Source of the DNA: Promethearchaeota archaeon
GTDB taxonomy: Archaea > Asgardarchaeota > Lokiarchaeia > Sigyniarchaeales > SOKP01
DNA length: 15,495 nt
Reading direction: 5' to 3'
Assembly (NCBI GenBank): GCA_008080735.1
Contig: SHMW01000094.1
Coordinates: forward strand, 1 to 15,495
Shown here: piece by piece, positions 1-15,495 of the stretch
Layout: the number at the start of each line of letters is the position of its first letter
Position numbering within the stretch: the first letter of the stretch is position 1
The notes under the pieces: generated by a model
What the model saw: only the letters and a program-made list of their open reading frames with translations
The model's database searches: none
What the model was told of the DNA's origin: nothing
Program-made: the position numbers and the translations under genes

Positions 1-73
1 AAAATCTTCATTTTTGCTTTTATTTTGATGAGATCTTTCATTATATTGACAATATCAGTTATTATATAAAAAA

Positions 74-1039
74 ATGTCCCTTCTAAAGTTTAAACATAAA
101 TTCGACAAGAAAGAAATAACAAAATTAACTCATAAAGACCATCAATTAATGAAAAAAAGCTATCCCTATTCTAGAAGGGGAGAACCGCATAATAATTTCT
201 TGTATGCGTTACTCTGTCTTATTTATGATGGAATACACGATCTTGCTAAAATTAAAGCAAAAATGAAGATTTTTTTCATCTCATCTACCAAACAATTAGT
301 TATCTCTGAGGAAGATATCGAAGAATATATACAAATTGCAAAAAGAGAGGGATTAATCGTAAAAAAAAATGAACATATTCTCGAATTGACTCAATCGGGA
401 AAAAAATTAACGGAGATTAGCTATATCAATAATTTGGAAGCTTCTTTCTATATGAGATATTTTTTTTCCGAAAACACTGTAATGCTGGCTTCTGCCGTCA
501 CTTTATTGGTTTTGTCTTTGCTCAAGATACTAATTGGCTTTCAATTGAATTCTCAAGCAATGAGTGCAGAAGGTTTTGAAAACTTAACAGACCTCGTGAA
601 GATTGCGATTATCGTTATTTTAGCTCTAAAATATAATAAAGAGAAACTCGCGAGTTTTATTATCATAACCTTAATGTTCTTTACAGGAGGGTCTTTGATA
701 TGGGCGGGAATTGAAGCTTTATTTTATCCCTCTGAAATAATACCTTCTGTTCAAGCGTTCCTCATTTCTTTTATATCCTTAATTCTGAATCTTGGTTTAA
801 TGTATTTAAAAGGAATGGTAGGGAAAATCTCTGGAAATTTGGCCATATTGAGCGATTCTAAAGATTCTCAATTGAATGTGATGCTTTCTGGTGGAGTGAT
901 AATAGGGTTGGTCTTTGCGATTTTTGGTTTTTATTTTGTTGATGCCTTTATTGGAATAATAATTTTTAAATTTTTTAAATTATTCGAATGCTATCAAATC
1001 ACGCTGGGTGGTTTTGATTGGAAGATTTCTCTAGATTGA
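74..1039 (+). CDS. Cation diffusion facilitator (CDF) family transporter with N-terminal winged-helix domain; probably C-terminally truncated
   Basis: CDF TM pattern: TM1 'LSLLKILIGFQLNSQAMSAEGFENLTD' (cf. K..G....S.A..ADA.H...D), TM5 'SGNLAILSDSKDS', TM6 start 'FYFVDAFIGIII'. N-terminal 'IAKREGLIVKK...LELTQSGKKL' matches a wHTH wing. No cytosolic C-terminal CDF domain. Confidence 0.8.
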   Translation: MSLLKFKHKFDKKEITKLTHKDHQLMKKSYPYSRRGEPHNNFLYALLCLIYDGIHDLAKIKAKMKIFFISSTKQLVISEEDIEEYIQIAKREGLIVKKNEHILELTQSGKKLTEISYINNLEASFYMRYFFSENTVMLASAVTLLVLSLLKILIGFQLNSQAMSAEGFENLTDLVKIAIIVILALKYNKEKLASFIIITLMFFTGGSLIWAGIEALFYPSEIIPSVQAFLISFISLILNLGLMYLKGMVGKISGNLAILSDSKDSQLNVMLSGGVIIGLVFAIFGFYFVDAFIGIIIFKFFKLFECYQITLGGFDWKISLD

Positions 1040-1147
1040 TTTATCTAAATTAGCCTAATTCCCGCAAGTGTCTGAATTATATCATTTATTGATTAAATTA
1101 ATTAGAAACTTCGATTTACTTATATTAAAAACAATCTATACTATAAA

Positions 1148-2437
1148 ATGAAAAATACAGAAAACGAGAAAACCGAAGATACGGATTCTTCAGAGACGGA
1201 TGAAGAAAAGGAAGAAGGTCAAACCCTAATTGATAAGATTCGGGGAAAAAAATCAGATAAGAAAAACCAAACACAACTCTTACAAGAAAAATTAGGCTTA
1301 GAGCCGGGATCCCTAGAGCAGATTGAACAAAAACTGTTTATGGCGCGTTTTATAGACTATTTCTCAGAAGAAACCTTTGATTTTATTTTCAGAGACAAAG
1401 AAATGGCAAAATATTTCGACCAAATTAAAGGAATTCTTGAAGGTTTTTCAACTAAATCGGAAGAAGACAAACTTATAAAACAAAGTTTTGAAAACAAGCA
1501 AATCGATCTTATTATGGAGCAATTAAAGGTAAAGGCAGAACAACGCGCACAAGAGAAAGGAATCACGAAATCAGTTGATAAACGTATGCGAAACTTGAGT
1601 ATTTATATAAGCATACCTATGTTTGTATTAGTTTTTGCATTATCACTAATCCCAGGTGTTAGTTATTTAATACTTTTTCCAATATTGTGTGTCTTTTGTA
1701 TGGTTCCAAACTTTATTAAGAGCTATCTGGTGAAAAAATGGCAAGAATTTAAGGAAGAGAATAAAATGGATTATTATTCAGCAAACAGGGAAGATATCAT
1801 GATACTTAAGGGATTTGTGGCTGATGTCTTAGAAAATATTCGTTCAAAACTCTTAGAATTGAGAGTTCCATTACAACTTATCAAATTTGTACTACACAGT
1901 AGGGATTATGAAAATCTAGATGTTATCAACCAAAAAACTCAGAGAGGCACATCTCAATATTTCCTTCAGTTTCAATATCCCGAAGGGGTAGAGCCTTATC
2001 CAATTCCAGATGCTATTGCCCAACAATATCAAGCATCTGAGAGATCACAAGAAATAAATAAAGAGGAAATACCAGAAAAAAATTTTATCGTATTTAAAAA
2101 CATCAAAGCTGAGGATGGAATTATAACAAGTTTTGTTCCAACTTTGAAAGATAATTTAGCAGATGAAATAAATGATATGCTAAATGAATGTAAATTTACT
2201 AAAGCAACGGATGACACAAGCATTATTCTTCCTAATTATAGTCCCGAAATGGCAATTTATTGCATATGTGGAGAAGTTGTCGAAATAGAAAATGTCCAGA
2301 TCTGTAATTGGAAAGAAATGTTTAAATTCTATCTATTCGAAGGTAAAGAATGCGATTGCGGAGAGAAGGTCTACGCTCTTTCTATGATGGATGAAAATCA
2401 AGAAATCCCTGAAGAATTGGAAAATATTTTTAAATAA
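1148..2437 (+). CDS. Hypothetical membrane protein (2 TM) with C-terminal CxCG/CxCG putative zinc-binding domain
   Basis: 429-aa ATG ORF with acidic N-terminus, helical region, hydrophobic hairpin at about aa 150-190, and 'YCICGE...ECDCGE' near the C-terminus. Confidence 0.8.
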   Translation: MKNTENEKTEDTDSSETDEEKEEGQTLIDKIRGKKSDKKNQTQLLQEKLGLEPGSLEQIEQKLFMARFIDYFSEETFDFIFRDKEMAKYFDQIKGILEGFSTKSEEDKLIKQSFENKQIDLIMEQLKVKAEQRAQEKGITKSVDKRMRNLSIYISIPMFVLVFALSLIPGVSYLILFPILCVFCMVPNFIKSYLVKKWQEFKEENKMDYYSANREDIMILKGFVADVLENIRSKLLELRVPLQLIKFVLHSRDYENLDVINQKTQRGTSQYFLQFQYPEGVEPYPIPDAIAQQYQASERSQEINKEEIPEKNFIVFKNIKAEDGIITSFVPTLKDNLADEINDMLNECKFTKATDDTSIILPNYSPEMAIYCICGEVVEIENVQICNWKEMFKFYLFEGKECDCGEKVYALSMMDENQEIPEELENIFK

Positions 2438-2447
2438 CTTGTTGTTT

Positions 2448-3821
2448 TTATTTACTTTTTATTTTTGAGTAATAATCATATAGAAGTCTATATCCGCGTA
2501 CAGCCCTTTCTACTTCATTTTCAAAAACAGGAATCTTTAGTTCTGAGGCACTTTCGATTACACGTTTAGCACCTTCAGTTTCTGCTTGAATTAAGGTTGC
2601 AATTATCGGTTTATTTGGGTATTCTTCTTTGATCTTTTTAAAGATGCTGAAATCAAATTCAATTTCAATAAAAAATTCGAGGGCGAGAATTAGACCATTG
2701 ACCGATTTATCTTCAAGTAGGGTTTTTGAGGATGTATTATAAATACTGCATACTTTCGTGCCAACAAATCGATCTGGGGGCCAATAATCAACTGGGTTTC
2801 CAGAAATACATGTTGATCCTCCTACTTTTTCTAATATTTTTTCACGATTTTGATTATTCAATTTTGCAAGCGATAAATTTTGCTTCCTCATTTCCTTTGC
2901 AATTATATGAATAGCTCCGCTGCTCGGTCCAATAATACCTAAATTTGGCCCTTTAGGTTCTGGACACCAAAGAAATATTTTTGCATAGTCGAATAACTCG
3001 ATATAATTCTCAACAGCAATCCCTCCTGCTTTTTTTAATTGCTCTTCCTTGTTGGTCTCCTTTCCAACATAAAAAAATAAAACGGGTTTTTTGGTTGCGC
3101 ATTTTGCCACGGCATCGATTAAATCATTAGAAATCTCTCTTAGGAATAGCAAAATGACATGCGTTTTTTTATCCTTAAAAAAATAATGAAGAATATTCGA
3201 TTCTTTTATATGAAACCCAAGACCTAAATGGATGACTTTGGAAATAGGTAAATCTTGAAAAGGCGACCACCAGCCTAGAGCTCCTGCTAAACCTCCAGAT
3301 TGCGCGATATAACTCGCACCAGCTTCGATATTTCTATTTTTCTTCATTATATGCTGGCGAACGGGAATTATTGAAGTTGTAAAGTTGTTTATGAAATTGA
3401 TTATCCCTATCATGCTTGGGCCCATATATTCTACATTATAGGTTTCAGCGATCTCATTTAATCGATTAATCCACCAAAAGTCGTGAGTTTGGGAAGGTGT
3501 TTGTTCTTCATAACTATTCTTTATTTCTGACTCAATTACAATATATTTAATACCTTTTCTCGCTAATTGCTCAAAAATTGAAAGAATATTCTTTCCTAAT
3601 ACAATTACCGCTAACTCGGGAATTTCGGGCAAGTCTTCTAAAGAATGATAAGATTTAATTCCCAATATCTCATCGGCATTAGGATTTACAATATAAATTT
3701 TCCCTCGATAAAAAATCTCTAAGAGGTTTTTCAAGATCGTATAATTGAATGTATATTCTTTCCTTGAAACACCTACAATCAAAATGCTTTCTGGGTTAAA
3801 AAAAGGTCGTAAATCAACCAA
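2448..3821 (-). CDS. ADP-forming acetate/acyl-CoA ligase alpha-subunit-like CoA-binding protein, probably catalytically inactive
   Basis: 'DLRPFFNPESILIVGVS', 'IYIVNPNADEILGIKSYHSLEDLPE', 'SYIAQSGGLA' and 'GNPVD' are hallmarks of ACD-alpha / succinyl-CoA ligase flavodoxin domains. The SHTG motif is absent. TTG start. Confidence 0.85.
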   Translation of the reverse strand: MVDLRPFFNPESILIVGVSRKEYTFNYTILKNLLEIFYRGKIYIVNPNADEILGIKSYHSLEDLPEIPELAVIVLGKNILSIFEQLARKGIKYIVIESEIKNSYEEQTPSQTHDFWWINRLNEIAETYNVEYMGPSMIGIINFINNFTTSIIPVRQHIMKKNRNIEAGASYIAQSGGLAGALGWWSPFQDLPISKVIHLGLGFHIKESNILHYFFKDKKTHVILLFLREISNDLIDAVAKCATKKPVLFFYVGKETNKEEQLKKAGGIAVENYIELFDYAKIFLWCPEPKGPNLGIIGPSSGAIHIIAKEMRKQNLSLAKLNNQNREKILEKVGGSTCISGNPVDYWPPDRFVGTKVCSIYNTSSKTLLEDKSVNGLILALEFFIEIEFDFSIFKKIKEEYPNKPIIATLIQAETEGAKRVIESASELKIPVFENEVERAVRGYRLLYDYYSKIKSK

Positions 3822-3980
3822 ATCTACATCAAATCTTTTTGATAAGTTTCTGATATATATAAAATATATTAATTGCTCTTATTGAATTTATAGACTTGTA
3901 TAGAATTCAAAAAAATAAGATATTCCGATGGTAAAATAAGATTTTTTAAAAATGAATATAGATAAATTATTGAAACGTTA

Positions 3981-4607
3981 TTAGGAAATTTCTATTTGGT
4001 GCAAACCAATCTCTCTTCGCTTATCCGCATTGTATAAAGGTAATCCCGCCCTTTTTAAGATATCTGTATCTTTGTATTTCAATAATACTATTTGACACGA
4101 GGTAGGAAGTTTATATGAGGCAACCTTCATACGCTTTTTAAGTAAGGGAAGATGGCGCATATCAACACCAACATCCATAATTACTTGTCCTGCTCGTACT
4201 CGTGCACACACTCCAGTCGCACGTCCGAAAGAATTTCTCATACCAGATTGAACTCTATCAGCTCCTGCAAAAGCCAACATTCTATTTTCTCTAAACTTTT
4301 GAAATGGTTTTGGTCGTACTCGGAGTCTGAAATTTTGTCTACCAACTTTTTTAAGGAGGGTCGCATTAACCGCCACTCTCATCGCTTCGAGTGCGTTAGA
4401 AGAGATTTGAACTTGATCCTCCACTTTGAGTCCCACCACGAGGTCGAATTCAGACCAATCTTTGAATTTATTACCACCCCAGAATCTTTGAATTTTACTC
4501 TGAGATCCTCCTCGGGCGAATTCTCTCCTGTGATTGGCAGAACGTTTATGCTGATACGGTCTTCTATTCCATTGACGGTAGCATCTCCATGGTCGCTTAT
4601 GTGCCAT
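3981..4607 (-). CDS. rpl10e: 50S ribosomal protein L10e (uL16)
   Basis: 'RPWRCYR', 'QISSNALEAMRVA', 'RENRMLAFAGADRVQSGMRNSFG', 'ARVRAGQVI' and 'ASYKLP' match the archaeal/eukaryotic L10e family. Confidence 0.97.
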   Translation of the reverse strand: MAHKRPWRCYRQWNRRPYQHKRSANHRREFARGGSQSKIQRFWGGNKFKDWSEFDLVVGLKVEDQVQISSNALEAMRVAVNATLLKKVGRQNFRLRVRPKPFQKFRENRMLAFAGADRVQSGMRNSFGRATGVCARVRAGQVIMDVGVDMRHLPLLKKRMKVASYKLPTSCQIVLLKYKDTDILKRAGLPLYNADKRREIGLHQIEIS

Positions 4608-4617
4608 TGTTATCTAT

Positions 4618-4661
4618 TCCTCAGTTGTAATTTATGATAATATATCTTATTTATAATAAAA
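4618..4661 (-). promoter_or_regulatory. Putative TATA box and SD-like site for rpl10e
   Basis: Minus strand TTTTATTATAAATA (4648-4661) and TGAGGA (4618-4623) about 10 nt before the ATG. Confidence 0.45.
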
Positions 4662-4824
4662 GTCAATTAGATAATAATTTTATTGTAATTAGTTCTATGA
4701 TTCCTAAAAATTAAATCTTTAGTTTTTTGGATCAAAAAAATAGCCCTTCTATTCGAAATTAATAATTTGAGAGAATAATTACCTTTTATAATCAATCTAA
4801 GAAAATAATTTGCTAGAAAAGTAT

Positions 4825-4848
4825 AGCTTAATAAATTAAGCTTATATA
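4825..4848 (+). promoter_or_regulatory. Palindromic operator-like site overlapping a putative TATA box
   Basis: AGCTTAAT-aa-ATTAAGCT (4825-4842, perfect 8-bp arms) overlaps CTTATATA (4841-4848) upstream of the OB-fold gene. Confidence 0.4.
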
Positions 4849-4908
4849 GATATTATGGATCGTTTAAAATAAGGAGAAATATAAAGTCTAATATTATTGG
4901 AGTTATTA

Positions 4909-5208
4909 ATGTCAAGGAAGGGAAAAAAAACCATAGAAGGAAAAATAGTGGAAGTGCGAGATGGATCAAGGCGAATAAGTCGAACCTATACATATGGGTA
5001 TCGATCACTTCGCATTATTTCTGGGAATGAATATTATTCAGTTTTAGTTAATACGAATAAATTTAACAAATATGGATTTATCCCGAAAGTCGGGCAGTGT
5101 ATCAGAGTGACGGGAAGAGTTTCGGAAAATGAAAATGAATTTTATGAAGCTTCAATCTCATGGGTTTCTCAATTAGAGCATATAGAGTGTCCAAAAAAAG
5201 GAAAATAG
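4909..5208 (+). CDS. Small stand-alone OB-fold nucleic-acid-binding protein
   Basis: OB-fold strand pattern 'TIEGKIVEV...SLRIISGNEYYSVLV...PKVGQCIRVTGRVSE'. ATG at 4909 is preceded by GGAG (4899-4902) and is preferred over the TTG at 4897. Confidence 0.7.
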   Translation: MSRKGKKTIEGKIVEVRDGSRRISRTYTYGYRSLRIISGNEYYSVLVNTNKFNKYGFIPKVGQCIRVTGRVSENENEFYEASISWVSQLEHIECPKKGK

Positions 5209-5516
5209 AGATGTTATTATTTGTTAAGCAAGAAAAAGTTGAATACACAAAGTACTTATTTAACCTCTGCTCGAATTTTCAGAGAATCCTATGGGATTCC
5301 TATAGAAAAAGTAAAAATTTGTAATTACTATGTTCTTAAGAATTACTTCATATACTGGATCACTAACCTTTTATTCACAAAAATTCATTTTTCTTTATAC
5401 ATAAAACATCTATTTATTCAATAACCTAATATTTTTAGCAATAGCATTTTTTTATAATCCTTAATATCTATGTAATAGTTCAATTAAGAAAATTCATCTC
5501 ATTTTCTCACATTTTA

Positions 5517-6668
5517 ATGACTAACATTATCTCAAATCTCAAGCAAAAAACGGAATTACTCTGTAAGGGACTCTACTTAGATAAGAATCTCATCGATCAT
5601 TACAAGAAACAAGGAATCGACCTTGATTTCGGCAGAAAAGGAGGAGCAGGACCATTAGGCGGACGTTATTTCTTATTAGAAGATAAATCCACTTTAGTAA
5701 ATGTGGCTTTATGGGATAATCCAGAAAGATCAAATCTTACCTTAAGTAGGAAAAAAGGGGATTTTTTCACGGTAGAAAATCGAACAACTAGTCAAGAGTA
5801 TGCTTCAATAAAATTAATCGACCATCCTAAATATTACTCGCCGCAATATAAAACTTCTGATGGGATTCCTATGAAGAAAATAGCTCTGGTGCACGGATTA
5901 GATTGTCTCGCCACCACGGTCTATCAAAAATGTAGATATTGGGCTTGTGGAGAAGCGTGTAAATTCTGTGGGATTGAGCTAAGTCTCACTTATGATACTA
6001 CTATAATAGAGAAATCAGCAAAACAAATCGCTGAAGTAATAACTGTGGCAAAAAGAGAAGGGAGATGTTCTCATATGACATTAACGAGTGGCACGGAAGA
6101 ATCTGAAGATAAAGGTGCGATAAGATATATGAATATCTTAAAAGGATTGAAAAAAAGGCATCCCAATATACCATTACATATTCAAATTGAACCCTTAAAA
6201 AATCTCGAATATTTAGAACAACTTAAAGAGGCAGGAGCTGATACTATTGGTATTCATATTGAACTATTAGATGAACAATTAAGAACACAAATCACCCCTG
6301 GAAAAGCAGAAATTCCATATGAAGATTTTGTGAAAAGTTGGAGAAAAGCAATAAAAATATTTGGAAATAATCAAGTTGAAAGCTTCATATTAACCGGCTT
6401 TGGGCAACCATATGAAACATTTATGGATAAAATAGATGAGGTGATCAAAATTGGGGTGATCCCATTCATTACACCTGTACGGGCTATACCTTCCAAAGAA
6501 AAAAAGACACCTCCCACAGATTATCAAAAATTACACAAGATTTATCAGAATGTCGCGCATTTAATGTTAAAATATAATATGAATCCTTTGGAAAATAAAG
6601 CGGGATGTGTGCGCTGTGGAGGTTGTTCTGCGATAACCGATTATTATAAATTTCAGAGTAAGGTGTAA
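5517..6668 (+). CDS. Radical SAM protein, MSMEG_0568 family (Nit1C-cluster type)
   Basis: 'GRKGGAGP', 'KIALVHGLDCLATTVYQKCRYWACGEACKFCGIELSL', 'HMTLTSGT...DKGA', 'ITPGKA' and C-terminal 'KAGCVRCGGCS' match the family as I recall it. Confidence 0.85.
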   Translation: MTNIISNLKQKTELLCKGLYLDKNLIDHYKKQGIDLDFGRKGGAGPLGGRYFLLEDKSTLVNVALWDNPERSNLTLSRKKGDFFTVENRTTSQEYASIKLIDHPKYYSPQYKTSDGIPMKKIALVHGLDCLATTVYQKCRYWACGEACKFCGIELSLTYDTTIIEKSAKQIAEVITVAKREGRCSHMTLTSGTEESEDKGAIRYMNILKGLKKRHPNIPLHIQIEPLKNLEYLEQLKEAGADTIGIHIELLDEQLRTQITPGKAEIPYEDFVKSWRKAIKIFGNNQVESFILTGFGQPYETFMDKIDEVIKIGVIPFITPVRAIPSKEKKTPPTDYQKLHKIYQNVAHLMLKYNMNPLENKAGCVRCGGCSAITDYYKFQSKV

Positions 6669-6706
6669 AATCTTTTTTTTAAAAACATTTTAATAAAAGG
6701 AGATTT
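6668..6706 (+). terminator. Putative oligo-T terminator after radical SAM gene
   Basis: TCTTTTTTTT immediately after the stop, with a weak hairpin AAATCTTTTTT...AAAAGGAGATTT. Confidence 0.35.
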
Positions 6707-6860
6707 GAGATAACTCATTTCTTATAACATAACACCGATAGAGAAAAATTAAAAGCCTTTTTTATTCCATTCTGTCGCAAAAAATTTAATAATTTGCTAA
6801 ATGTTATCTAAAACATAGTATTGTATTTTATAAATCTCTAAATTTAACTTTAGAATTATC

Positions 6861-8501
6861 ATGACTGAATCTAAAACTTCAAAAAAAGAAGACCTAAAAA
6901 CGGAGAAAGAAAAGACCCAACGGTCTTTTCGAAATCTTTCTGATATAGAAATAAAACGCCTCTATAAACCAGAGGATATAGATGATATTGACTATAATAA
7001 GGATTTAGGAGAACCAGGGCAGTTTCCATTTACCAGAGGACCATATGATAATATGTATCGTGGGAGATTATGGACTATGCGGCAATTTGCTGGGTTCGGC
7101 ACCGCCGACCAAACCAACCAACGATTTAAATTTCTTATTAACCATGGTCAGACAGGATTAAGCGTTGCTTTCCATTTGCCTACTATATACGGCTATGAAT
7201 CTACAGACGAGAAATCACTCGGAGAAGTCGGAAAAGAGGGTGTTGCGATAGATACTTTGGCAGATATGGAAACCTTATTTGATGGTATCGATCTCTCGAA
7301 AATATCTACTTCAATGACTATTAATGCTCCAGCCTCAATATTATTGTCAATGTATATTGTTGTAGGAAAAAAACAAGGAGTTAAACCTGAGCAACTTAGA
7401 GGGACAATCCAGAATGACATATTAAAGGAATATATTGCTCAAAAATCTTGGATTTTTCCTCCCGAGCCTTCAATGAGACTAATTGTTGATACAATTGAAT
7501 ACTGTACCGAGCATGTACCCCAATGGTATACAATCAGCATAAGCGGATATCATATCAGAGAGGCAGGATCAACAGCCGTTCAAGAGTTAGCATTTACCTT
7601 AGCTGATGGATTTGCCTACGTAGAAGCTGCGATGGAACGAGGGTTAGATGTAGATGATTTTGCTCCTCGATTATCATTCTTTTTCAATTCTCATAATAAC
7701 TTTTTCGAAGAGATCGCCAAATTTAGAGCTGCTCGTAGGATTTGGGCAAAACGTATGAAACATAAATATGCAGCAAAAAAGCCTGAATCAATGCGTTTAA
7801 GGTTCCATACGCAGACTGCTGGTGTCTCTTTAACTGCGCAAGAACCAGAAAATAATATAGTAAGAGTTACGCTCCAAGCGCTCGCTGCAGTTTTAGGTGG
7901 CACACAGTCATTACATACTAATTCATTTGATGAGGCATTGTGTTTACCTACGGAAAAAGCAGTTAGAATTGCCTTGAGAACCCAACAGATAATTGCTTAT
8001 GAATCTGGTGTTGCTGATACAGTCGATCCATTGGCGGGTTCCTATTATGTTGAATGGCTCACGGAAAAAATGGAAGAGGAAGCGGAGAGATATTTCGAAA
8101 AAATTGAAGAATTGGGAGGTGTTATTCCAGCGATTAAGAAAAACTTTTTCCAAAAAGAGATCGCTAATGCTTCCTATAGATATCAAAAAGAAGTCGAAAA
8201 AAAGGAACGAATTATCGTTGGAGTAAACAAATATAAACCAGAAAAAAAAATCCAGCCAGATATTTTAAAGATTGATGAAGAGGTCTCGATAAATCAAAAA
8301 CAGAGATTAAAACAAATTAAAAAGGATAGAAATAATCAAGCTGTAGAAGATGCCTTAAATGATTTGAAGGCGGCGGCTGAAGGAACAAAAAATCTTATGC
8401 CGTATATAATTAAGGCTGTAAAAACCTATGCATCTGTTGGAGAAATTATTGGAACCCTTAAGCAAGTATTTGGAACCTATACAGAAGACTCAATATTTTA
8501 G
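6861..8501 (+). CDS. icmA: AdoCbl-dependent acyl-CoA mutase large (substrate-binding) subunit, isobutyryl-CoA mutase type
   Basis: 'PGQFPFTRG...MYRGRLWTMRQFAGFG', 'GQTGLSVAFHLPT', 'TIQNDILKEYIAQ', 'ISISGYHIREAG', 'GGTQSLHTNSFDEA'. Specificity residues are F76/Q194. The family is certain; the substrate is inferred. Confidence 0.85.
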   Translation: MTESKTSKKEDLKTEKEKTQRSFRNLSDIEIKRLYKPEDIDDIDYNKDLGEPGQFPFTRGPYDNMYRGRLWTMRQFAGFGTADQTNQRFKFLINHGQTGLSVAFHLPTIYGYESTDEKSLGEVGKEGVAIDTLADMETLFDGIDLSKISTSMTINAPASILLSMYIVVGKKQGVKPEQLRGTIQNDILKEYIAQKSWIFPPEPSMRLIVDTIEYCTEHVPQWYTISISGYHIREAGSTAVQELAFTLADGFAYVEAAMERGLDVDDFAPRLSFFFNSHNNFFEEIAKFRAARRIWAKRMKHKYAAKKPESMRLRFHTQTAGVSLTAQEPENNIVRVTLQALAAVLGGTQSLHTNSFDEALCLPTEKAVRIALRTQQIIAYESGVADTVDPLAGSYYVEWLTEKMEEEAERYFEKIEELGGVIPAIKKNFFQKEIANASYRYQKEVEKKERIIVGVNKYKPEKKIQPDILKIDEEVSINQKQRLKQIKKDRNNQAVEDALNDLKAAAEGTKNLMPYIIKAVKTYASVGEIIGTLKQVFGTYTEDSIF

Positions 8502-8516
8502 AAGAGGTTAAGAAAT

Positions 8517-8918
8517 ATGGCAAATGAAAGAAGAATAAAAGTTCTAGTATGTAAACCAGGTTTAGACGGACATGATCGAGGGGCGAAGGTAGTGGCAAGA
8601 GGACTTCGGGATTCGGGAATGGAGGTAATTTACACGGGCCTTCATCAAACCCCCAAAGATATTGTTAATACCATCATCCAGGAAGACCCAGACGCCGTTT
8701 TATTAAGCATTCTATCGGGAGCTCATAATGCGTTATGCCCGAAAATTATGGAAGAATTAGAAAAGAATAACATTGATGATGTGTTAGTCGCCGTGGGCGG
8801 GATTATTCCAGAAGAAGATAAAGAATTTCTCCGAAAACATGGACTAAGAGGCTTTTATGGCCCAGGAACAGAGATAAAAACTATTGTTGAATTTGTGAAG
8901 AATAATCTAAAAAGATAA
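8517..8918 (+). CDS. icmB: Acyl-CoA mutase small (cobalamin-binding) subunit
   Basis: DxHxxG motif 'KPGLDGHDRGAKVV', 'LSILSGAH', 'VGGIIP', 'YGPGT'. AGAGGT RBS at 8503-8508; 15 bp after the large subunit. Confidence 0.9.
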   Translation: MANERRIKVLVCKPGLDGHDRGAKVVARGLRDSGMEVIYTGLHQTPKDIVNTIIQEDPDAVLLSILSGAHNALCPKIMEELEKNNIDDVLVAVGGIIPEEDKEFLRKHGLRGFYGPGTEIKTIVEFVKNNLKR

Positions 8919-8927
8919 GAAGTCAAT

Positions 8928-9935
8928 ATGGGGAATAGTTACAAAGATTTAATCACTCGATTGTTGGAAGGGGAATTAAGGGCAGCCGCACGATTGATAA
9001 CTTTAGCCGAAAATGATATAAAAACCGCAGAGGAAATTATCAATTCTATATACAAATATACTGGAAATGCCTACATAATAGGAATTACGGGTGCCCCTGG
9101 AAGTGGCAAAAGCACTTTTATCTCCACATTAGTAAAAAAATACACTGAGCAAGACAAAAAAATTGGAATTATCTGTGTAGATCCTTCTTCTCCATTAACG
9201 GGAGGTGCTTTATTAGGTGACCGAATCCGGATGAAACAACATTTCTCTTTGGAAAATGTATTCATTAGGAGTATGGCTAATCGAGGGCAATTGGGTGGCT
9301 TATCTCGTGCGACCGAAGATGTCATTAAAATATTAGACGCAAACAAATGCGATGTAATAATTGTTGAGACTGTAGGTGTTGGTCAATCTGAGGTCGATAT
9401 TTTCAAATCTGCTCATTCTGTGTTGGTTTTGTTAGTTCCTGGATTGGGAGACGATATTCAAACTATAAAAGCAGGGATCATGGAAATAACCGATATATTT
9501 GTAGTTAATAAAATGGATTTAGAGGGCGCTGATCGTAAAGTTGCAGAACTTGTTCAAATGCTTGAACTAAATATGAATTATAAGTTTAATTCTGAAGTTT
9601 TAAATGACGATTTTGCAAAAATTCGCAAATGGACCCCCGAAATTGTAAAAACAAATTCAATTACAGGAGAAAATTTTGATAAACTGCTCAAAATCATTGC
9701 AAAACATAAAGAATTTTTAGAGCATTCGGGTGTAATTCAGAACTATAAAAGAAATCGCATAAAAAGCGAGACCCTACAGATACTAAAATATAAGCTAACC
9801 GAGAAAATAGAACAATTATTTAAAGATAGTGAAAAGATTGAAGAATATATAAATAAAGTTATGGAAAAATCAATAGACCCCTATTCGATGGCAGAATTGA
9901 TTATAGAATTACTTGGTATTAATAACAACGTTTAA
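8928..9935 (+). CDS. meaB: MeaB/ArgK G-protein chaperone of B12 mutases
   Basis: P-loop 'GITGAPGSGKST', 'VDPSSPLTGGALLGDRIRM', 'ETVGVGQSE', 'GDDIQTIKAGIME', 'NKMD'. Confidence 0.96.
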   Translation: MGNSYKDLITRLLEGELRAAARLITLAENDIKTAEEIINSIYKYTGNAYIIGITGAPGSGKSTFISTLVKKYTEQDKKIGIICVDPSSPLTGGALLGDRIRMKQHFSLENVFIRSMANRGQLGGLSRATEDVIKILDANKCDVIIVETVGVGQSEVDIFKSAHSVLVLLVPGLGDDIQTIKAGIMEITDIFVVNKMDLEGADRKVAELVQMLELNMNYKFNSEVLNDDFAKIRKWTPEIVKTNSITGENFDKLLKIIAKHKEFLEHSGVIQNYKRNRIKSETLQILKYKLTEKIEQLFKDSEKIEEYINKVMEKSIDPYSMAELIIELLGINNNV

Positions 9936-9973
9936 AAGTTATTTTTAAAGAATAATTATCTTGTTTGATTATA

Positions 9974-10747
9974 ATGAATCTATTAATTGCTGGTGGAGGT
10001 AAGTTTGGGAAGAAGGCTATAGAATATGCCAAAAAATTAAATTATAGGGCAATTCTAATAGATAAAAATCCTAATTGTTTTGCCTCTACTCATACTCAGA
10101 CAACATTCAATAATGTAGATACACTTATAAAAAATTTTGATAATTATAATTCAGGGGATATGATATTTTTGAATGATAATATTTCTTCTATTAACAAGCT
10201 ACTTTTAAATATACAATTTGAATTTATCATTCCAGTTGTCCCCATCCATCTAACTGCTGTAATTATCAAAAATTATTTCAATTCATTTGAAATAGAAATG
10301 GATCTAAATTTTAAATCACTAGAAGAGATTACAGATAAAATTGATCCAAAATTGCTCTTGGACAGTATTCAGGATTCAGCAACCATTTATTTATCTTACG
10401 CAAAAAGAGATGAAATATGTCCCGATAATTGTTCTGGCCCTCCAAACTATTGTCCTAATTTTGATCGCGAAAAACCCATTACCATAACAAACTATTTAGC
10501 GGAATTCTTTAATGTTCCGGAACAGATTAGATTATCAAAAGGAAAAAAAAGAGTGTTTTTTTTAATTAAAAGCTATCAATTAAAAGCTGGGCTGGGAGGA
10601 TTAAAGGGTGAAGACATTTCTGAGGTCTTTAAGATGATTCATGATAATTCAGCATATTTTAAACAAGATAAATACGATATAATCATATCTACAAGTTGTA
10701 ATTGTCATGGAGTGATCTCATTTATGAAAAATAACCCCTCTGTTTAG
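9974..10747 (+). CDS. Uncharacterised NAD(P)-binding Rossmann (TrkA-N-like) protein with Cys-rich C-terminal metal-binding region
   Basis: 'LLIAGGGKFGKKA...ILIDKN' (GxGxxG plus acidic residue), 'CPDNCSGPPNYCP', 'SYQLKAGLGG', 'TSCNCHG'. ATG 9974 is preferred over TTG 9965. Confidence 0.8.
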   Translation: MNLLIAGGGKFGKKAIEYAKKLNYRAILIDKNPNCFASTHTQTTFNNVDTLIKNFDNYNSGDMIFLNDNISSINKLLLNIQFEFIIPVVPIHLTAVIIKNYFNSFEIEMDLNFKSLEEITDKIDPKLLLDSIQDSATIYLSYAKRDEICPDNCSGPPNYCPNFDREKPITITNYLAEFFNVPEQIRLSKGKKRVFFLIKSYQLKAGLGGLKGEDISEVFKMIHDNSAYFKQDKYDIIISTSCNCHGVISFMKNNPSV

Positions 10748-10794
10748 CGAATTCAGAAAATTTGTAATAAATCACGATTTAATAAGAACAGAAT

Positions 10795-11238
10795 CTATTT
10801 TTCAAATAAATTAATGCGAAGATTAAACTGTTTCGCACTATTCGGACAATTTAATTCGCAACAACCCGGAAGATATGAATAGACTTCAAATTTATCAATG
10901 GGAATAAGAAGATACATTAATGAATGAATTAGAGAACATGATTTATTTATCTCTTCTAATGGGCCATCACATAATGCAGTTTTATGTTCCCTCTTATTAA
11001 CATAGATGCATAATCCATCTTTTGGATAAAATCCAAATAAAAACTGAAATCGAGGTATCACGGGATATTTTAAAGTCTCCACTTTTCTTGAATAGGATAG
11101 TTGAATATGATTAAAATCGAGAGTGAACTTCAGTGCTTTATAGGAATCGGTTTGTTTATCCTCTTCACTTATGTCGTGCAAGATAAAATCCCGAGATACT
11201 GCGGTGTCGATGAGATTTTTTAAATCTTTTGAAATCAT
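10795..11238 (-). CDS. Hypothetical protein, Cys-containing
   Basis: 147-aa ATG ORF filling an intergenic gap, with six Cys including 'GCCELNCP'. No family recognised. Confidence 0.65.
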   Translation of the reverse strand: MISKDLKNLIDTAVSRDFILHDISEEDKQTDSYKALKFTLDFNHIQLSYSRKVETLKYPVIPRFQFLFGFYPKDGLCIYVNKREHKTALCDGPLEEINKSCSLIHSLMYLLIPIDKFEVYSYLPGCCELNCPNSAKQFNLRINLFEK

Positions 11239-11434
11239 TTTATTCTTTTTTCTTTTCTTTTAGAAAAAGATCATATAATAGGTTTTATTATCAATAAGCT
11301 ACTAAAATTGAATTATTATTTTTATAGTAATATGGTAATTTTTCCTTATATTTTTTTCTCCTCAAAATGTAGGAGTCTTAAGATAAAATTTTGAAGGGAG
11401 AGGATTTACTAGTTTAACTTTTTGTTAATAGAAT

Positions 11435-11701
11435 TTAGATCTTTATCAGTTTATCTTCTTTAGGGTCTATCCATTCTGAATATATCTCTGTAATTAGAGA
11501 ATTTCCTTTAGATCCACATTCCTCACATTTTTCGTCTTCTAATGTCTTGAACGTATAATCTCCTTTTTCAAATGGTCTTGTATGCTTGTTCTTACACTCT
11601 TTACATTGAATAACCGAATAGACCTTCTGGATAAAGCGGTCTTTTCGATCTAATATATCCCCTATTGCGGGTAAGGGTGGTAATTGTGGTTCCTCGCTCA
11701 T
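11435..11701 (-). CDS. Small archaeal zinc-ribbon protein
   Basis: 'CKEC...RPFEKGDYTFK...CEECG...ITEIYSE': two CxxC knuckles in a pattern seen in conserved archaeal hypothetical proteins. Confidence 0.8.
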   Translation of the reverse strand: MSEEPQLPPLPAIGDILDRKDRFIQKVYSVIQCKECKNKHTRPFEKGDYTFKTLEDEKCEECGSKGNSLITEIYSEWIDPKEDKLIKI

Positions 11702-11900
11702 AAGTGACTTCCTATTGGTTTATTATAATTATAAACTATATATAGTTTTGATATAATAATAAGACTAATCTAATATTTTTATGGATTATAAGATTTAGAA
11801 TAAATATGTTTCTCCTATTGGATTTACAAAAATAAAATACAGTTTATTAAATGTGAAAAATTAAACATTATATATCAACTAGAGTTATCTAACATTAGAT

Positions 11901-13085
11901 ATGAATTCTAAAGAATTAGTAAAAGCAGCATTATATTTTGAAAAGCCAGAAAGGGTCCCATACTTCAAAGATGTTAGAGGAGATATGATATTTCTAATTC
12001 TTCAACCATCTCAGAATTGGAAACCAGGGTGGAAAGATGGAGAAGAGGGATTGTTTCCCCACATTCGAACAAATTATGAGTGGAATAAACCTGAATGGGC
12101 CAAAAATAATACAAAATTTAAAAAGGACGAATGGAAAAAAATGCCTCATGAAGAAGTTGATGAATGGGGTTGCATTTGGAATATGACGGGATCCGATTAT
12201 ACAATGGGACACCCTGGTAGACCCATAATTGAAGATTGGAAAGATTTTGATGAATATCGAGAAAAATATTCCTTAGATCCATATGATGAAACTAGATATG
12301 AATTTGCTCATGAGTTAAAAAGAGCCTTCGGGAAAGACAAATACCTTTCAGCACTTCTAGCGGATTTTGGTCCATTTCAGCGATCTACTAACATAATAGG
12401 TTTCTCCAAATTCCTGATTGAACATAGAAAGAATCCTCAGATGGTTAGGAAGATATTGAATTGGGTTGCTGATTGGCATATTGATGCAATGAAAGGATGT
12501 TTTAAATACGGCTTAGATCCCGACGGATTTTTTATCGTGGATGATTTAGGTGAGCAATCTGGTCCCTTTTTTAGTCCCAAGACTTTTAAAGAATTCTATT
12601 ATCCTATTTACAAGAAGCTTGCCGATGAGGCGCATGAGCTAGGAACTGAAATTCACTTGCATTGTTGTGGAAAGGTAGATAAAATAATGCCCATCTTAAT
12701 AGATGCTGGTCTTGACGCTATAGAGTTTGACAGTCCCAGAATGACGGGTTATAACGATTTAAGACCATTTAGAGGGAAAATTATGATGTGGGGAGGGGTT
12801 AATATTCAATCAATATATACAAGAGGTACACCGGAGCAAGTGCAGCGAGAAGTATGGCATATGGTACGGAACCTTGGAACAAAAGAAGGGGGATTTGGCG
12901 CATATTTCTATCCCACTCCAACCGATATAAAAGCACCAAGCAAAAATATAAAGGCATTCCTTAGAGGATTAAAGAAGTATGGCGATTATTCTAAGATTCC
13001 AGAAGAATGGTGGGAATATCCCGTACCTCAAGAATGGAAGGATATGGAAGTGCCTCCTACGCCTCCAGGTGAAATAGTTAGTTGA
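11901..13085 (+). CDS. Uroporphyrinogen decarboxylase / MtaA-CmuA methyltransferase-like family protein
   Basis: 'MNSKELVKAALYFEKPERVP', 'DEWGCIW', 'DDLGEQSGPFFSPKTFKEFYYPIYKKL', 'HLHCCG', 'WGGVNIQ...GTPEQVQREV'. Confidence 0.88.
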   Translation: MNSKELVKAALYFEKPERVPYFKDVRGDMIFLILQPSQNWKPGWKDGEEGLFPHIRTNYEWNKPEWAKNNTKFKKDEWKKMPHEEVDEWGCIWNMTGSDYTMGHPGRPIIEDWKDFDEYREKYSLDPYDETRYEFAHELKRAFGKDKYLSALLADFGPFQRSTNIIGFSKFLIEHRKNPQMVRKILNWVADWHIDAMKGCFKYGLDPDGFFIVDDLGEQSGPFFSPKTFKEFYYPIYKKLADEAHELGTEIHLHCCGKVDKIMPILIDAGLDAIEFDSPRMTGYNDLRPFRGKIMMWGGVNIQSIYTRGTPEQVQREVWHMVRNLGTKEGGFGAYFYPTPTDIKAPSKNIKAFLRGLKKYGDYSKIPEEWWEYPVPQEWKDMEVPPTPPGEIVS

Positions 13086-13089
13086 CCAT

Positions 13090-13106
13090 CTTTTCTTTTA
13101 TATTTT
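13090..13106 (+). terminator. Putative oligo-T terminator
   Basis: CTTTTCTTTTATATTTT just after the URO-D-like stop. Confidence 0.3.
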
Positions 13107-13296
13107 AATAAAAATGTAGAAGATTAGCTCTATCTCACCCAAAAATCTTTTTAAACTCATAATCTTATGTATTTTTCTAAATTTTTCTAAAAAAAATTGG
13201 GTCTTATCAATCATAAATAACATATTATTAATTCACAATTTCTTGATAGATTATGAACAATATTAATGATTATAAGTTAAGTAAAAGTGGTTTTGT

Positions 13297-13503
13297 ATGA
13301 AAGAAAATAAAACTAAAGAGCCTGAGAAATTAAATGAAGAGGAGTATGAATGTTATAGATGTCATCATAAATTAACGGAAGCACGAGCTTTGCCGTTTGC
13401 GGGAAGGATTATTTGTCCTCGATGTTTAAGAAATTTATTAGCCCCTATACTAATCATCTTAACAGCAATAATTTTGGTTATTTTAGTATTAGCACTAGTA
13501 TAA
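13297..13503 (+). CDS. Small zinc-finger protein with C-terminal transmembrane anchor
   Basis: C-x2-C-x17-C-x2-C ('CYRC...CPRC') followed by a hydrophobic helix of about 22 aa ending at the stop. Confidence 0.75.
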   Translation: MKENKTKEPEKLNEEEYECYRCHHKLTEARALPFAGRIICPRCLRNLLAPILIILTAIILVILVLALV

Positions 13504-13521
13504 ACACAATGAGAATAAAAC

Positions 13522-14235
13522 ATGAAATCAAAGATAATATCCCAAATATATATTGGCATTTATACCCGTAAAAATTTTAAACGTTTCGTTTTGCCTATAT
13601 CATTTTCTATATTTTTTATACTCCTAATAACTTCACGTCTAATTTTCCCAGGATTCTATTCAATTTTTTCTAATACCATCAGTGATCTAGGGAATCCAAT
13701 ATTAAATCCTTTTCCGGGTTGGTTGTTTTTTTCTTTAGCATTTTGGTCGTTAGCCGTTTTATTTCCCCCATTATTTCTATATCTCCATCGTCGTTTAGTA
13801 GTGATTCATCAAATAGAGGCAAAAATTGGAACAAGTAGTAATATTATATCAATATTTGGCATGATTTTGCTAGGAATCTTTCCAAACCTTCCAGAGACTA
13901 ATTTTATGCATTTAATTGCAGCAATTTTATCATTTGCGGGGATGGGAGTAGCAATCATATTCTATTGGCTAGCGGTGATCCACGATTCAATACAAAAAGC
14001 GATGAGATATCATCATATTGGTATATCAATGATCTTAATATTTATTACCTTTCTATTTACAGCAATCACTTTTCTAGGAAGCCTTCAAATTGGTTCTGAA
14101 ATTTTTGATTTAAATATAATTTGGTTGTTTGATTTTCCATTCTGGGAATGGTTACTATTTATATTTCTCTCCTTTCAATTATTTTTCATTGGTATCATAA
14201 TTCCAGAACAATTTTCTTATGAAAAATCTACCTAA
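13522..14235 (+). CDS. DUF998 (Frag1/DRAM-like) multi-pass membrane protein
   Basis: 'PGFYSIFSNTISDLG', 'GMILLGIFP', 'HLIAAILSF', 'FWEWL'; about 6 TM helices. Confidence 0.78.
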   Translation: MKSKIISQIYIGIYTRKNFKRFVLPISFSIFFILLITSRLIFPGFYSIFSNTISDLGNPILNPFPGWLFFSLAFWSLAVLFPPLFLYLHRRLVVIHQIEAKIGTSSNIISIFGMILLGIFPNLPETNFMHLIAAILSFAGMGVAIIFYWLAVIHDSIQKAMRYHHIGISMILIFITFLFTAITFLGSLQIGSEIFDLNIIWLFDFPFWEWLLFIFLSFQLFFIGIIIPEQFSYEKST

Positions 14236-14516
14236 ATTCATAAGTTAAGATGGAAATGCAGATATAATTGGATTTAGCTATCAAATTAGAAATTAATATT
14301 AAGCAAAATAAAAATTCAATTTACCTGATTTTTAGGTCTTCGATAATAATTTAGATTTTGGACAAAAATTCCTTTAAAAAAAAAGATTTGCATGCAAATA
14401 AAGTTCTTTAGGAATAAAACTACATTTCAAAATTATCAAGAAAAATTGGAAGATAAAGAAGTTGAAGAATGAGAATTGATTATTGCTCTCTGTGATTTAA
14501 AAATTAAAATTAGGAT

Positions 14517-15266
14517 TTATTCTTCAGCATCTTTTATCTTACCATTTTCTTCTTCTTTTTCTTGTTTTTCACTCTCTTCCTCCTTGTTGCTATCTTCTTT
14601 TTCAGGTTCTGGAGGCTTTGGTTTTCGAGAAATGATTACTTTCGAATAGCGAATGACTTCCTTTTCAAACATCCAACCATCCTGTATTATATCAACGATG
14701 GTATTATTTGGAAGGTCGCCTCGTTCAAGAGAACTTAGAGCCTCGTGCTTATTATAATCAAATTTTTGTAACTCTTCGGTATGCATCGGATGGGCACCCA
14801 TCGATTTCATAATGTTCATAAATTGCTTATAAAATTGCTCAATATGGCCATCTGAGTCCTCATTTTCTACCGCACTTTTAAAGGAATCATAGAGTGAGAG
14901 AAAATTTTTAAGAGTATTTGCCGTATATTGGGTACGCAAATTTTTGCGTGACTTTTCCCAACGCTTTTGTGTATTCTCAAATTCTGCTTGCAGTCGCATA
15001 AATTTATCTTTCCAATCTTTATTTAACTTCTGTAATTCTCTAATTTCATCATCTTGGTTTGTCAATTCATCTTCTAATTTAATGATTTTTTCTATTAACT
15101 CTTCCCTTGATAAGTCTTTGAACTTTTCTTCTTCACTAAATTCATCTGCCATTTCTTTCTTCTCATCCTTAAATTCCACATCAGAGTCAGAAGTATTTTC
15201 CTTCTGCGAGTTTTCAGTTTCCACTTCTTCAGAATTATCGGATTTTTTTTGCTTATGTTTATTCAT
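14517..15266 (-). CDS. grpE: Nucleotide exchange factor GrpE
   Basis: Acidic disordered N-terminus, 'KDKFMRLQAEFENTQKR', 'FLSLYDSF', 'FDYNKHEAL', 'TIVDIIQDGWMFEKEVIRYSKVIIS'. Confidence 0.95.
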   Translation of the reverse strand: MNKHKQKKSDNSEEVETENSQKENTSDSDVEFKDEKKEMADEFSEEEKFKDLSREELIEKIIKLEDELTNQDDEIRELQKLNKDWKDKFMRLQAEFENTQKRWEKSRKNLRTQYTANTLKNFLSLYDSFKSAVENEDSDGHIEQFYKQFMNIMKSMGAHPMHTEELQKFDYNKHEALSSLERGDLPNNTIVDIIQDGWMFEKEVIRYSKVIISRKPKPPEPEKEDSNKEEESEKQEKEEENGKIKDAEE

Positions 15267-15495
15267 CTTACTTACCTTAGTATTGAATAAATTAGATAAT
15301 TAATAATCCTAAATGTAAAATACTTAGATAAATGAATTGTGGAAATTTTAAATTTTTTTGGATGATATGGAGATCATTTATAATTAGAGAAAATAACATA
15401 TTTATTATGAAAATACAGATTCTAAATCTTAGAAGAATTATCGAAATTCTTTTATATATAGAATGAAAATATAATATATTCTCTAATTATAAATA

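Follow-up and report, generated by a model that had tools for sequence, protein, structure and literature searches.

A PF27252 family gene behind an isobutyryl-CoA-mutase-type trio in a Promethearchaeota archaeon is a candidate corrinoid-processing accessory

The contig SHMW01000094.1 of a Promethearchaeota archaeon (assembly GCA_008080735.1), of which positions 1 to 15,495 were analysed and are called the window below, carries an operon of four genes, icmA, icmB, meaB and orfX. The first three are predicted to encode a split isobutyryl-CoA-mutase-type enzyme with its MeaB-type GTPase, a kind of system that is already known, and the added fourth gene, which encodes a cytoplasmic protein of the family PF27252, is what is new in the operon. 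Our analysis leans towards a role of orfX as an accessory in corrinoid processing, most likely as a redox enzyme, which would supply or repair the cofactor of the mutase rather than act in the pathway of its substrate. The four genes are as follows.

6861..8501, + strand: IcmA-like acyl-CoA mutase large (substrate-binding) subunit, 546 aa (PF01642 MM_CoA_mutase, E 6e-232)
8517..8918, + strand: IcmB-like B12-binding small subunit, 133 aa (PF02310, E 2e-25)
8928..9935, + strand: MeaB-type G-protein chaperone, 335 aa (PF03308, E 7e-86)
9974..10747, + strand: orfX, 257 aa, PF27252 (AF_1314_C) family (precomputed Pfam label and Atlas cluster names)

The listing of open reading frames (ORFs) of the window gives the four + strand frames as 6861-8501, 8517-8918, 8928-9935 and 9965-10747, the last of which has its first ATG at 9974 and hence a product of 257 aa. 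The ORF calls and the family matches confirm what a sequence-only reading of this DNA had claimed, namely four genes on the same strand with gaps of 15, 9 and 38 bp, the last counted from the ATG at 9974; it becomes 29 bp if orfX begins with the TTG at 9965. We take the ORFs to be real genes and not chance frames because of the family matches, the 104 homologs of orfX and the confident fold predicted for it. A scan for sigma-70 promoters and intrinsic terminators gave counts equal to those in shuffled sequences, with scan models that do not cover archaeal signals.

The neighbours of PF27252 genes in other organisms point to the handling of corrinoids. PF27252 is named after AF_1314 of Archaeoglobus fulgidus and has no assigned function, and the link to B12 proposed here comes from our own survey. 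A pattern scan over one genome per GTDB species gave 152 relatives, and 80 loci were kept, both archaeal (Ignisphaera, Bathyarchaeota, Nezhaarchaeales, Methanomethylicia, Methanosuratincola, Methanomassiliicoccales and Korarchaeota) and bacterial (Desulfobacterales, Syntrophobacterales, Verrucomicrobiota, Kiritimatiellaeota and Calditrichales). A simple ORF caller recovered the homolog in 77 of the 80 loci, and all 391 ORFs within three positions of it were scanned against Pfam and some of them against NCBIfam. Corrinoid genes, counted as BtuF/BtuC/BtuB-like, CbiZ, CbiB, CobS/CobT/CobY-like, CobA, RACo and methylmalonyl-CoA mutase (MCM), were found within three ORFs of the homolog in 23 of the 77 loci; the 77 are mostly from outside Asgard. 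The arrangements are listed here by locus.

L101: BtuF-FecCD-ABC-orfX-CbiZ-CbiB
L110 and L123, and partially, as the contigs hold, L116 and L117: BtuF-orfX-TonB receptor-FecCD(-ABC)
L122 and L154: CobS-CobY-like-CobT-orfX
L112, L113, L114 and L121: CobT, or CobY-like and CobT, directly upstream of orfX
L090: CobY-like, CbiZ and CobT, divergent from orfX
L127: orfX-CbiZ-CobD-CbiB
L151 and L157: CobA nearby
L098, L118, L130 and L156: RACo nearby
L139 and L158: BtuFCD-like operon, convergent with orfX
L124 and L132 (Desulfobacteraceae): MCM with the Tyr/Arg pair, divergent from orfX

The archaeal CobT assignments are based on TIGR00303, which scores 408 bits for the neighbour in L113 and 317 bits for that in L090 (cut-off 240), while the TonB receptor beside orfX has the B12 receptor as its best NCBIfam match, below the cut-off. 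We scanned 16 of the 80 loci, picked for bacterial transporter or corrinoid neighbours, against Rfam and found the cobalamin riboswitch RF00174 in five of them. In L101, L110 and L123 the orfX homolog is itself part of the operon that the riboswitch heads; in L139 and L158 the riboswitch heads an adjacent BtuFCD-like operon. The family is thus met with riboswitch-led B12 import, cobinamide salvage, nucleotide-loop assembly, CobA, RACo and adenosylcobalamin (AdoCbl) mutases of two substrate types. What is common to all these contexts is corrinoid handling and not acyl-CoA chemistry, and we therefore infer a role of orfX at the cofactor. That it is a corrinoid-handling accessory in some general sense seems quite likely to us.

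The orfX protein itself belongs to a well-populated family. A database search returned 104 homologs at 90% clustering. Those with a source name are all from archaea of the Promethearchaeota type (Loki- or Hermod-). A profile search extended the family to 395 representatives at 50% identity. The label PF27252.1, taken from the precomputed Pfam column of the collection and not from model scoring of our own, stands on 103 of the 104, i.e. on orfX and on 102 of the other 103 homologs. The nearest Atlas clusters (cosine 0.95) are named AF_1314_C and 'uncharacterized protein AF_1314'. In our own scans, whose Pfam copy did not include PF27252, orfX had nothing above threshold in Pfam or NCBIfam, the best matches being a pre-ATP-grasp domain (E 0.003) and CCG (E 0.02). 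A full-text literature search for AF1314/AF_1314 gave nothing relevant, a B12-focused search at the level of titles did not find a tie of PF27252 to B12 metabolism, and isobutyryl-CoA mutase in Asgard had no match in the literature searched.

We predicted the structure of the whole orfX protein with a mean predicted local distance difference test score (pLDDT) of 93.2. A Rossmann-like unit with the loop GGGKFG and Asp30 spans residues 1 to about 95, and the C-terminal domain (residues 96-257), modelled alone, reaches a pLDDT of 94.5 and carries the motif C149-x3-C153-x6-C160 ... C242-x-C244-H245 (CX3CX6C...CXCH). G7, G9, G12, S141, C149, C153, C160, S200, G208, C242, C244 and H245 are invariant or nearly so across the family, D30, C35 and H92 are retained in most of its branches, and all the core residues are shared by the orfX of the window and its homologs from the corrinoid operons. 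The five invariant cysteines and the one histidine suggest a metal or iron-sulphur (Fe-S) site. Foldseek matched the whole model to generic Rossmann proteins only (best E 8.5e-4, TM 0.29), and VIA-align gave a best Z of 7.1 over about 90 N-terminal residues with no chain at Z of 8 or more. The N-terminal domains of CysG, Met8p and SirC score Z 6.1-6.5 as part of a large set of Rossmann folds, and we regard them as a lead only. For the C-terminal domain none of 48,161 chains reached Z 5 in VIA-align (best Z 3.6), and Foldseek found no solved counterpart (best E 0.31); this lack of a structural counterpart is no proof of a new fold.

The genome of the host (4.1 Mb, 93% complete, with the window as its contig C94) provides a setting in which such a protein could act. 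Family searches found no CbiZ, CobS, CbiC or PduO-type adenosyltransferase in this 93%-complete genome, but they found two CobA-type adenosyltransferases and three AdoCbl mutase large subunits, one in the window and one each on contigs C18 and C30. This set suggests, without proving it, that the organism is probably a cobamide auxotroph, which takes up complete cobamides and then has to reduce and adenosylate them for its three mutases. The C18 paralog is of the Tyr/Arg (MCM) type. The C30 paralog (C30:13216-24135; loci L033 and L087) has Phe at the position of MCM Tyr89 and Tyr at that of Arg207, and it comes with its own small subunit and MeaB. Upstream of it are genes resembling those for acyl-CoA dehydrogenase and electron-transfer flavoprotein (ETF), as judged from their N-termini only; downstream are two opposite-strand ORFs, and a CobA adenosyltransferase follows about 2 kb beyond the mutase-MeaB genes.

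We speculate on a mechanism as follows. A nucleotide or dinucleotide would be bound in the Rossmann-like half of orfX, and the invariant Cys and His residues would hold a metal or Fe-S centre. Using both, orfX would reduce or otherwise process imported or oxidised cobalamin, the CobA-type adenosyltransferases would then remake AdoCbl, and MeaB would gate the loading of AdoCbl onto the split mutase. A redox or ligand-processing step is the most economical mechanism given a nucleotide-binding half together with an invariant Cys/His site, although we can only speculate on the redox chemistry, on a metal centre and on any hand-off to CobA, and we put the chance that orfX is a reductase specifically somewhat short of even. 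PduS with PduO, CblC/MMACHC and RACo reduce or process cobalamin for adenosylation or reactivation, and they are encoded beside B12 enzymes. The likeness of orfX to them lies in the genomic context and the proposed role only, since family scans, Foldseek and VIA-align found no sequence or fold similarity. In particular, orfX does not match the PduS, CobA, PduO, EutT or CblC families (Pfam and NCBIfam at E <= 0.01, Pfam at E <= 10), a result that bears on membership in these families only and not on whether orfX works like one of them.

It is possible, and we say so tentatively, that the whole of PF27252 is an unrecognised and widespread corrinoid-processing enzyme of anaerobic bacteria and archaea, acting between the uptake or salvage of B12 and its loading, which one Asgard order would have recruited into the mutase-MeaB operon as its fourth gene and whose C-terminal domain would be structurally new. 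It could then be a dedicated Co(III)/Co(II) reductase that depends on an Fe-S centre and a nucleotide, or even an adenosylation factor of a fourth kind.

The same residues could also serve another chemistry. orfX might be an adenosyltransferase of a new type that acts on corrinoids, or it might carry corrinoids or exchange their upper ligand without redox chemistry. ATP or another nucleotide would then sit in the Rossmann-like half, and Cys or His would ligate the cobalt. The five invariant Cys and one invariant His suit this proposal, the weak sequence and fold matches include pre-ATP-grasp domains, and the operons of L101, L127 and the window all need an adenosylated corrinoid but have no recognisable adenosyltransferase gene. 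However, the GGGxxG loop and the acidic residue that ends strand 2 are more typical of dinucleotide binding, and Pfam and NCBIfam show no similarity of orfX to the CobA, PduO and EutT families. CobA genes exist in the genome and also stand beside the homologs in L151 and L157, so orfX is no simple replacement for CobA, and the two CobA-type genes rule it out as the sole adenosyltransferase of the genome. We consider this alternative unlikely.

Within the Asgard archaea, the linkage of orfX to the mutase is recurrent in one order. We searched 400 genomes of the phylum in six frames. Of these, 54 have orfX-like genes, the window's own included, and for the other 53 loci we fetched up to 6 kb of flank on each side and located the genes of the window by tblastn. 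The order of the window accounts for 33 of these loci, which are arranged as follows.

24 of 33 genomes: icmA-icmB-meaB-orfX on one strand, with a meaB-orfX gap of -4 to 130 bp
2 of 33 genomes: meaB-orfX gap of 0.7-1.4 kb
3 of 33 genomes: meaB 3.6-5 kb off, or on the other strand
4 of 33 genomes: no meaB in the fetched stretch

Of the last four loci, two are on short contigs, and in the other two orfX stands behind a CoA ligase resembling ADP-forming acyl-CoA synthetase (ACD). The gap in L049 was estimated from tblastn positions. The sequence-only reading had made its view of orfX depend on a recurrent link to cobalamin enzymes, and the survey found one, tight in 24 of the 33 genomes. These 24 linkages span three families, in each of which meaB and orfX overlap by 4 bp in one genome (L051, L059 and L077), and the junction is kept tight while the identity of orfX drops to 24-35%. 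This argues for co-expression of meaB and orfX in the lineages with the tight junction. The earlier suggestion of an accessory component survives in part. The linkage to the mutase recurs, but in the order of the window orfX is present in only 34 of 154 genomes against 121 of 154 for the orthologous mutase (at least 69% identity), and it is thus an optional extra and not a core subunit. A structure prediction for the complex of IcmB, MeaB and orfX had a score of 0.00 and gives no evidence either way.

Adjacency of this kind could also be an order of genes inherited from one ancestral event with no functional tie, orfX having some unrelated housekeeping role. All 24 tight linkages indeed fall within one order, orfX is missing from 87 of the 121 genomes that have the mutase ortholog, and the other Asgard classes place orfX elsewhere. 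Many loci of the Deltaproteobacteria type also have only housekeeping neighbours, with Maf, TatD, YggS, nitroreductase or CoaBC in place of corrinoid genes. But mere inheritance hardly accounts for a junction held at -4 to 130 bp across three families despite so low an identity, for an independent adjacency to MCM in Desulfobacteraceae and to B12 genes in ten or more groups of lineage and context, or for the three riboswitch-led operons. We find this explanation rather improbable, a little more so than that of an adenosyltransferase or carrier.

In alignments to the Propionibacterium shermanii MCM structures 1REQ and 5REQ, Phe76 and Gln194 of the large subunit fall in the columns of Tyr89 and Arg207, and 5REQ, a Y89F mutant, differs from 1REQ exactly at the column of Phe76. 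The enzyme is thus of the F/Q type, as the sequence-only reading had proposed. We take the Phe/Gln pair to be the mark of isobutyryl-CoA mutases. All 28 of the mutases neighbouring orfX that are readable at both positions have Phe/Gln. The large subunit scores 803 bits against TIGR00641 but stays under the cut-offs of the MCM equivalog NF006944 (663 bits, cut-off 876) and of the IcmF model NF045497 (390 bits, cut-off 1500). The small subunit scores 163 bits against TIGR00640 (cut-off 57) and has the DxHxxG motif as D17, H19 and G22, of which H19 and G22 are invariant and D17 nearly so in 26 orthologs. MeaB scores 341 bits against TIGR00750 (cut-off 241) and has the P-loop GAPGSGKST.

Three candidates were rejected for the trio. 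The Phe/Gln pair in place of Tyr89/Arg207 and the score under the equivalog cut-off rule out an MCM, and an IcmF proper is ruled out by three separate ORFs that each score far below the cut-off of NF045497. The 2-hydroxyisobutyryl-CoA mutase HcmAB (4R3U) is the closest solved relative, with 565 bits over residues 17-546 of the large subunit (MCM 495, IcmF 314), and it likewise has Gln at the position of Arg207. It is ruled out by Phe76 and Ala103, which face Ile90 and Asp117 of HcmA, residues that presumably define that enzyme. The predicted activity of the trio is to interconvert isobutyryl-CoA with butyryl-CoA, and pivalyl-CoA, isovaleryl-CoA or another apolar compound may be a substrate as well. 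The passages of PMC2847961 that we consulted do not name these signature residues.

The trio resembles IcmA/IcmB of Streptomyces cinnamonensis in having separate large and small B12-binding subunits, the Phe/Gln pair (in Streptomyces IcmA Phe80 and Gln198, which we take to be the residues that specify the substrate) and a GTPase of the MeaB family. It differs in that the host is an archaeon and that the three genes are contiguous and followed by orfX. The same three modules make up IcmF (4XC6), in which they are fused in the order B12, G, mutase, whereas here they are unfused and ordered mutase, B12, G. The three proteins cover successive segments of the IcmF model (3-115, 147-444 and 516-1073), so the trio has the same domains as IcmF, arranged in the classical split form of IcmA/IcmB plus GTPase. 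The earlier description as an unfused equivalent of IcmF is apt for the domains, but that form is already known, and the accompanying claim of a novel system has to be given up for the trio. It had further been argued that a missing methylmalonyl-CoA epimerase fits an achiral substrate. Pfam and NCBIfam indeed find none in the window, but the 93%-complete genome as a whole also has none that reaches the TIGR03081 cut-off of 115 (best score 50 bits), and the absence from the operon therefore says little.

One residue of IcmA sets the enzyme apart from the other mutases compared. At position 105 (DNA about 7173-7175), in the motif SVAF-H, the window has His and some genera and relatives have Ser, unlike MCM, HcmA and both paralogs of the same genome, which all have Asp.

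The gene orfX is not confined to this type of mutase: the family is also found with genes of B12 uptake and salvage and, in two Desulfobacteraceae, with a Tyr/Arg MCM. We give little credence to a role of orfX in acyl-CoA or short-chain acid metabolism, as an NAD(P)-dependent oxidoreductase whose substrate would be a precursor or product of the rearrangement between butyryl-CoA and isobutyryl-CoA: its place in a mutase operon, the ACD-like ligase directly upstream in L044 and L050, the enoyl-CoA hydratases near it in L039, L081 and L141, the ETF in L074, the AMP-binding ligases of Desulfobacterales loci and the name 'NAD(P)-dependent oxidoreductase' given to a homolog by one source would all agree with this, but it leaves the homologs in riboswitch-led btu operons unexplained, as well as those between CobT and CbiZ/CbiB/CobS genes with no acyl-CoA genes adjacent, and partner mutases of the Phe/Gln type in Asgard and the Tyr/Arg type in Desulfobacteraceae have no common substrate.

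Several observations weigh against orfX as a corrinoid-processing accessory. No recognisable corrinoid neighbour is present in 54 of the 77 loci, and the 23 linked loci form about ten groups of lineage and context and are not independent. The classes called corrinoid-related and the ORF calling are a scheme of our own, and the count of 23 in 77 stands without a matched random-gene control. Where the riboswitch was not found, FecCD/Peripla_BP_2 transporters can also carry haem or siderophores. Among the 20 orfX-like loci of other Asgard classes, which include three weak partial matches, none has a mutase, small subunit or MeaB in the fetched flanks, and their neighbours vary. The absence of orfX from most relatives that keep the mutase shows it to be dispensable, and the acyl-CoA genes near some homologs, i.e. 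the ACD-like genes, enoyl-CoA hydratases and AMP-binding ligases named above, fit a cofactor role less well. The Rossmann match is generic (Z about 7), the metal site is read from residue conservation, and the cofactor role is proposed from the context and sequence of genes.

The surroundings of the operon and of the PF27252 genes show several further features. Upstream of icmA, at a distance of 192 bp, is a radical S-adenosylmethionine (SAM) gene of the MSMEG_0568 family (window 5517-6668, + strand; TIGR04043 283 bits, slightly below the cut-off of 304). By tblastn, 10 of the 53 Asgard loci that we fetched have this gene upstream of their mutase, and all 10 belong to the same archaeal family as the window. 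Two convergent ORFs without family matches follow orfX, a Cys-containing one of 147 aa directly downstream (window 10795-11238, - strand) and a zinc-ribbon-like one of 88 aa (window 11435-11701, - strand). Of the 53 loci, 10 keep the first and 13 the second of these small ORFs beside orfX, L036, L040 and L043 among them, where meaB has moved off. A gene resembling URO-D and MtaA/CmuA (window 11901-13085, + strand; 72 bits, below the cut-off) lies 1.1 kb downstream of orfX; it belongs to a family of corrinoid-dependent methyltransferases with about ten more paralogs in the genome. On the - strand, window 2448-3821 is an ACD alpha-like gene with CoA_binding and Succ_CoA_lig domains, below the equivalog cut-offs, a relative of which is the gene directly upstream of orfX in L044 and L050.

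Among the loci outside Asgard, a DUF169 (PF02596) gene stands directly upstream of the orfX homolog and on the same strand in L133, L134, L135, L143, L144, L151 and L157, all from Desulfobacterales and related bacteria. These loci often have an FNR-like FAD/NAD reductase, a DUF1638 gene or CobA upstream and an AMP-binding ligase downstream, and the set may be a second conserved module around PF27252. Proteins of the AP-endonuclease-2 family lie near the homologs in L130 and L140; CbiR, as described in the part of PMC7733943 that we consulted, is an AP-endonuclease-2 protein and belongs to the same Pfam family.

The predicted type of the trio corrects the annotation 'methylmalonyl-CoA mutase', which such genes are likely to carry, to an isobutyryl-CoA-type enzyme. 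For the biology of Asgard archaea, our data suggest three AdoCbl mutases in what is probably a cobamide auxotroph, and for one or more of the three a gene that may be dedicated to servicing the cofactor. The reduction of cobalamin and its hand-over in anaerobes are only partly known, and mostly unspecific reductants are invoked for them. If orfX has the role proposed here, PF27252 would be a concrete candidate for this missing step, on account of its riboswitch-controlled uptake operons, its archaeal clusters of cobinamide salvage and nucleotide-loop assembly, and its neighbourhoods of AdoCbl mutases.

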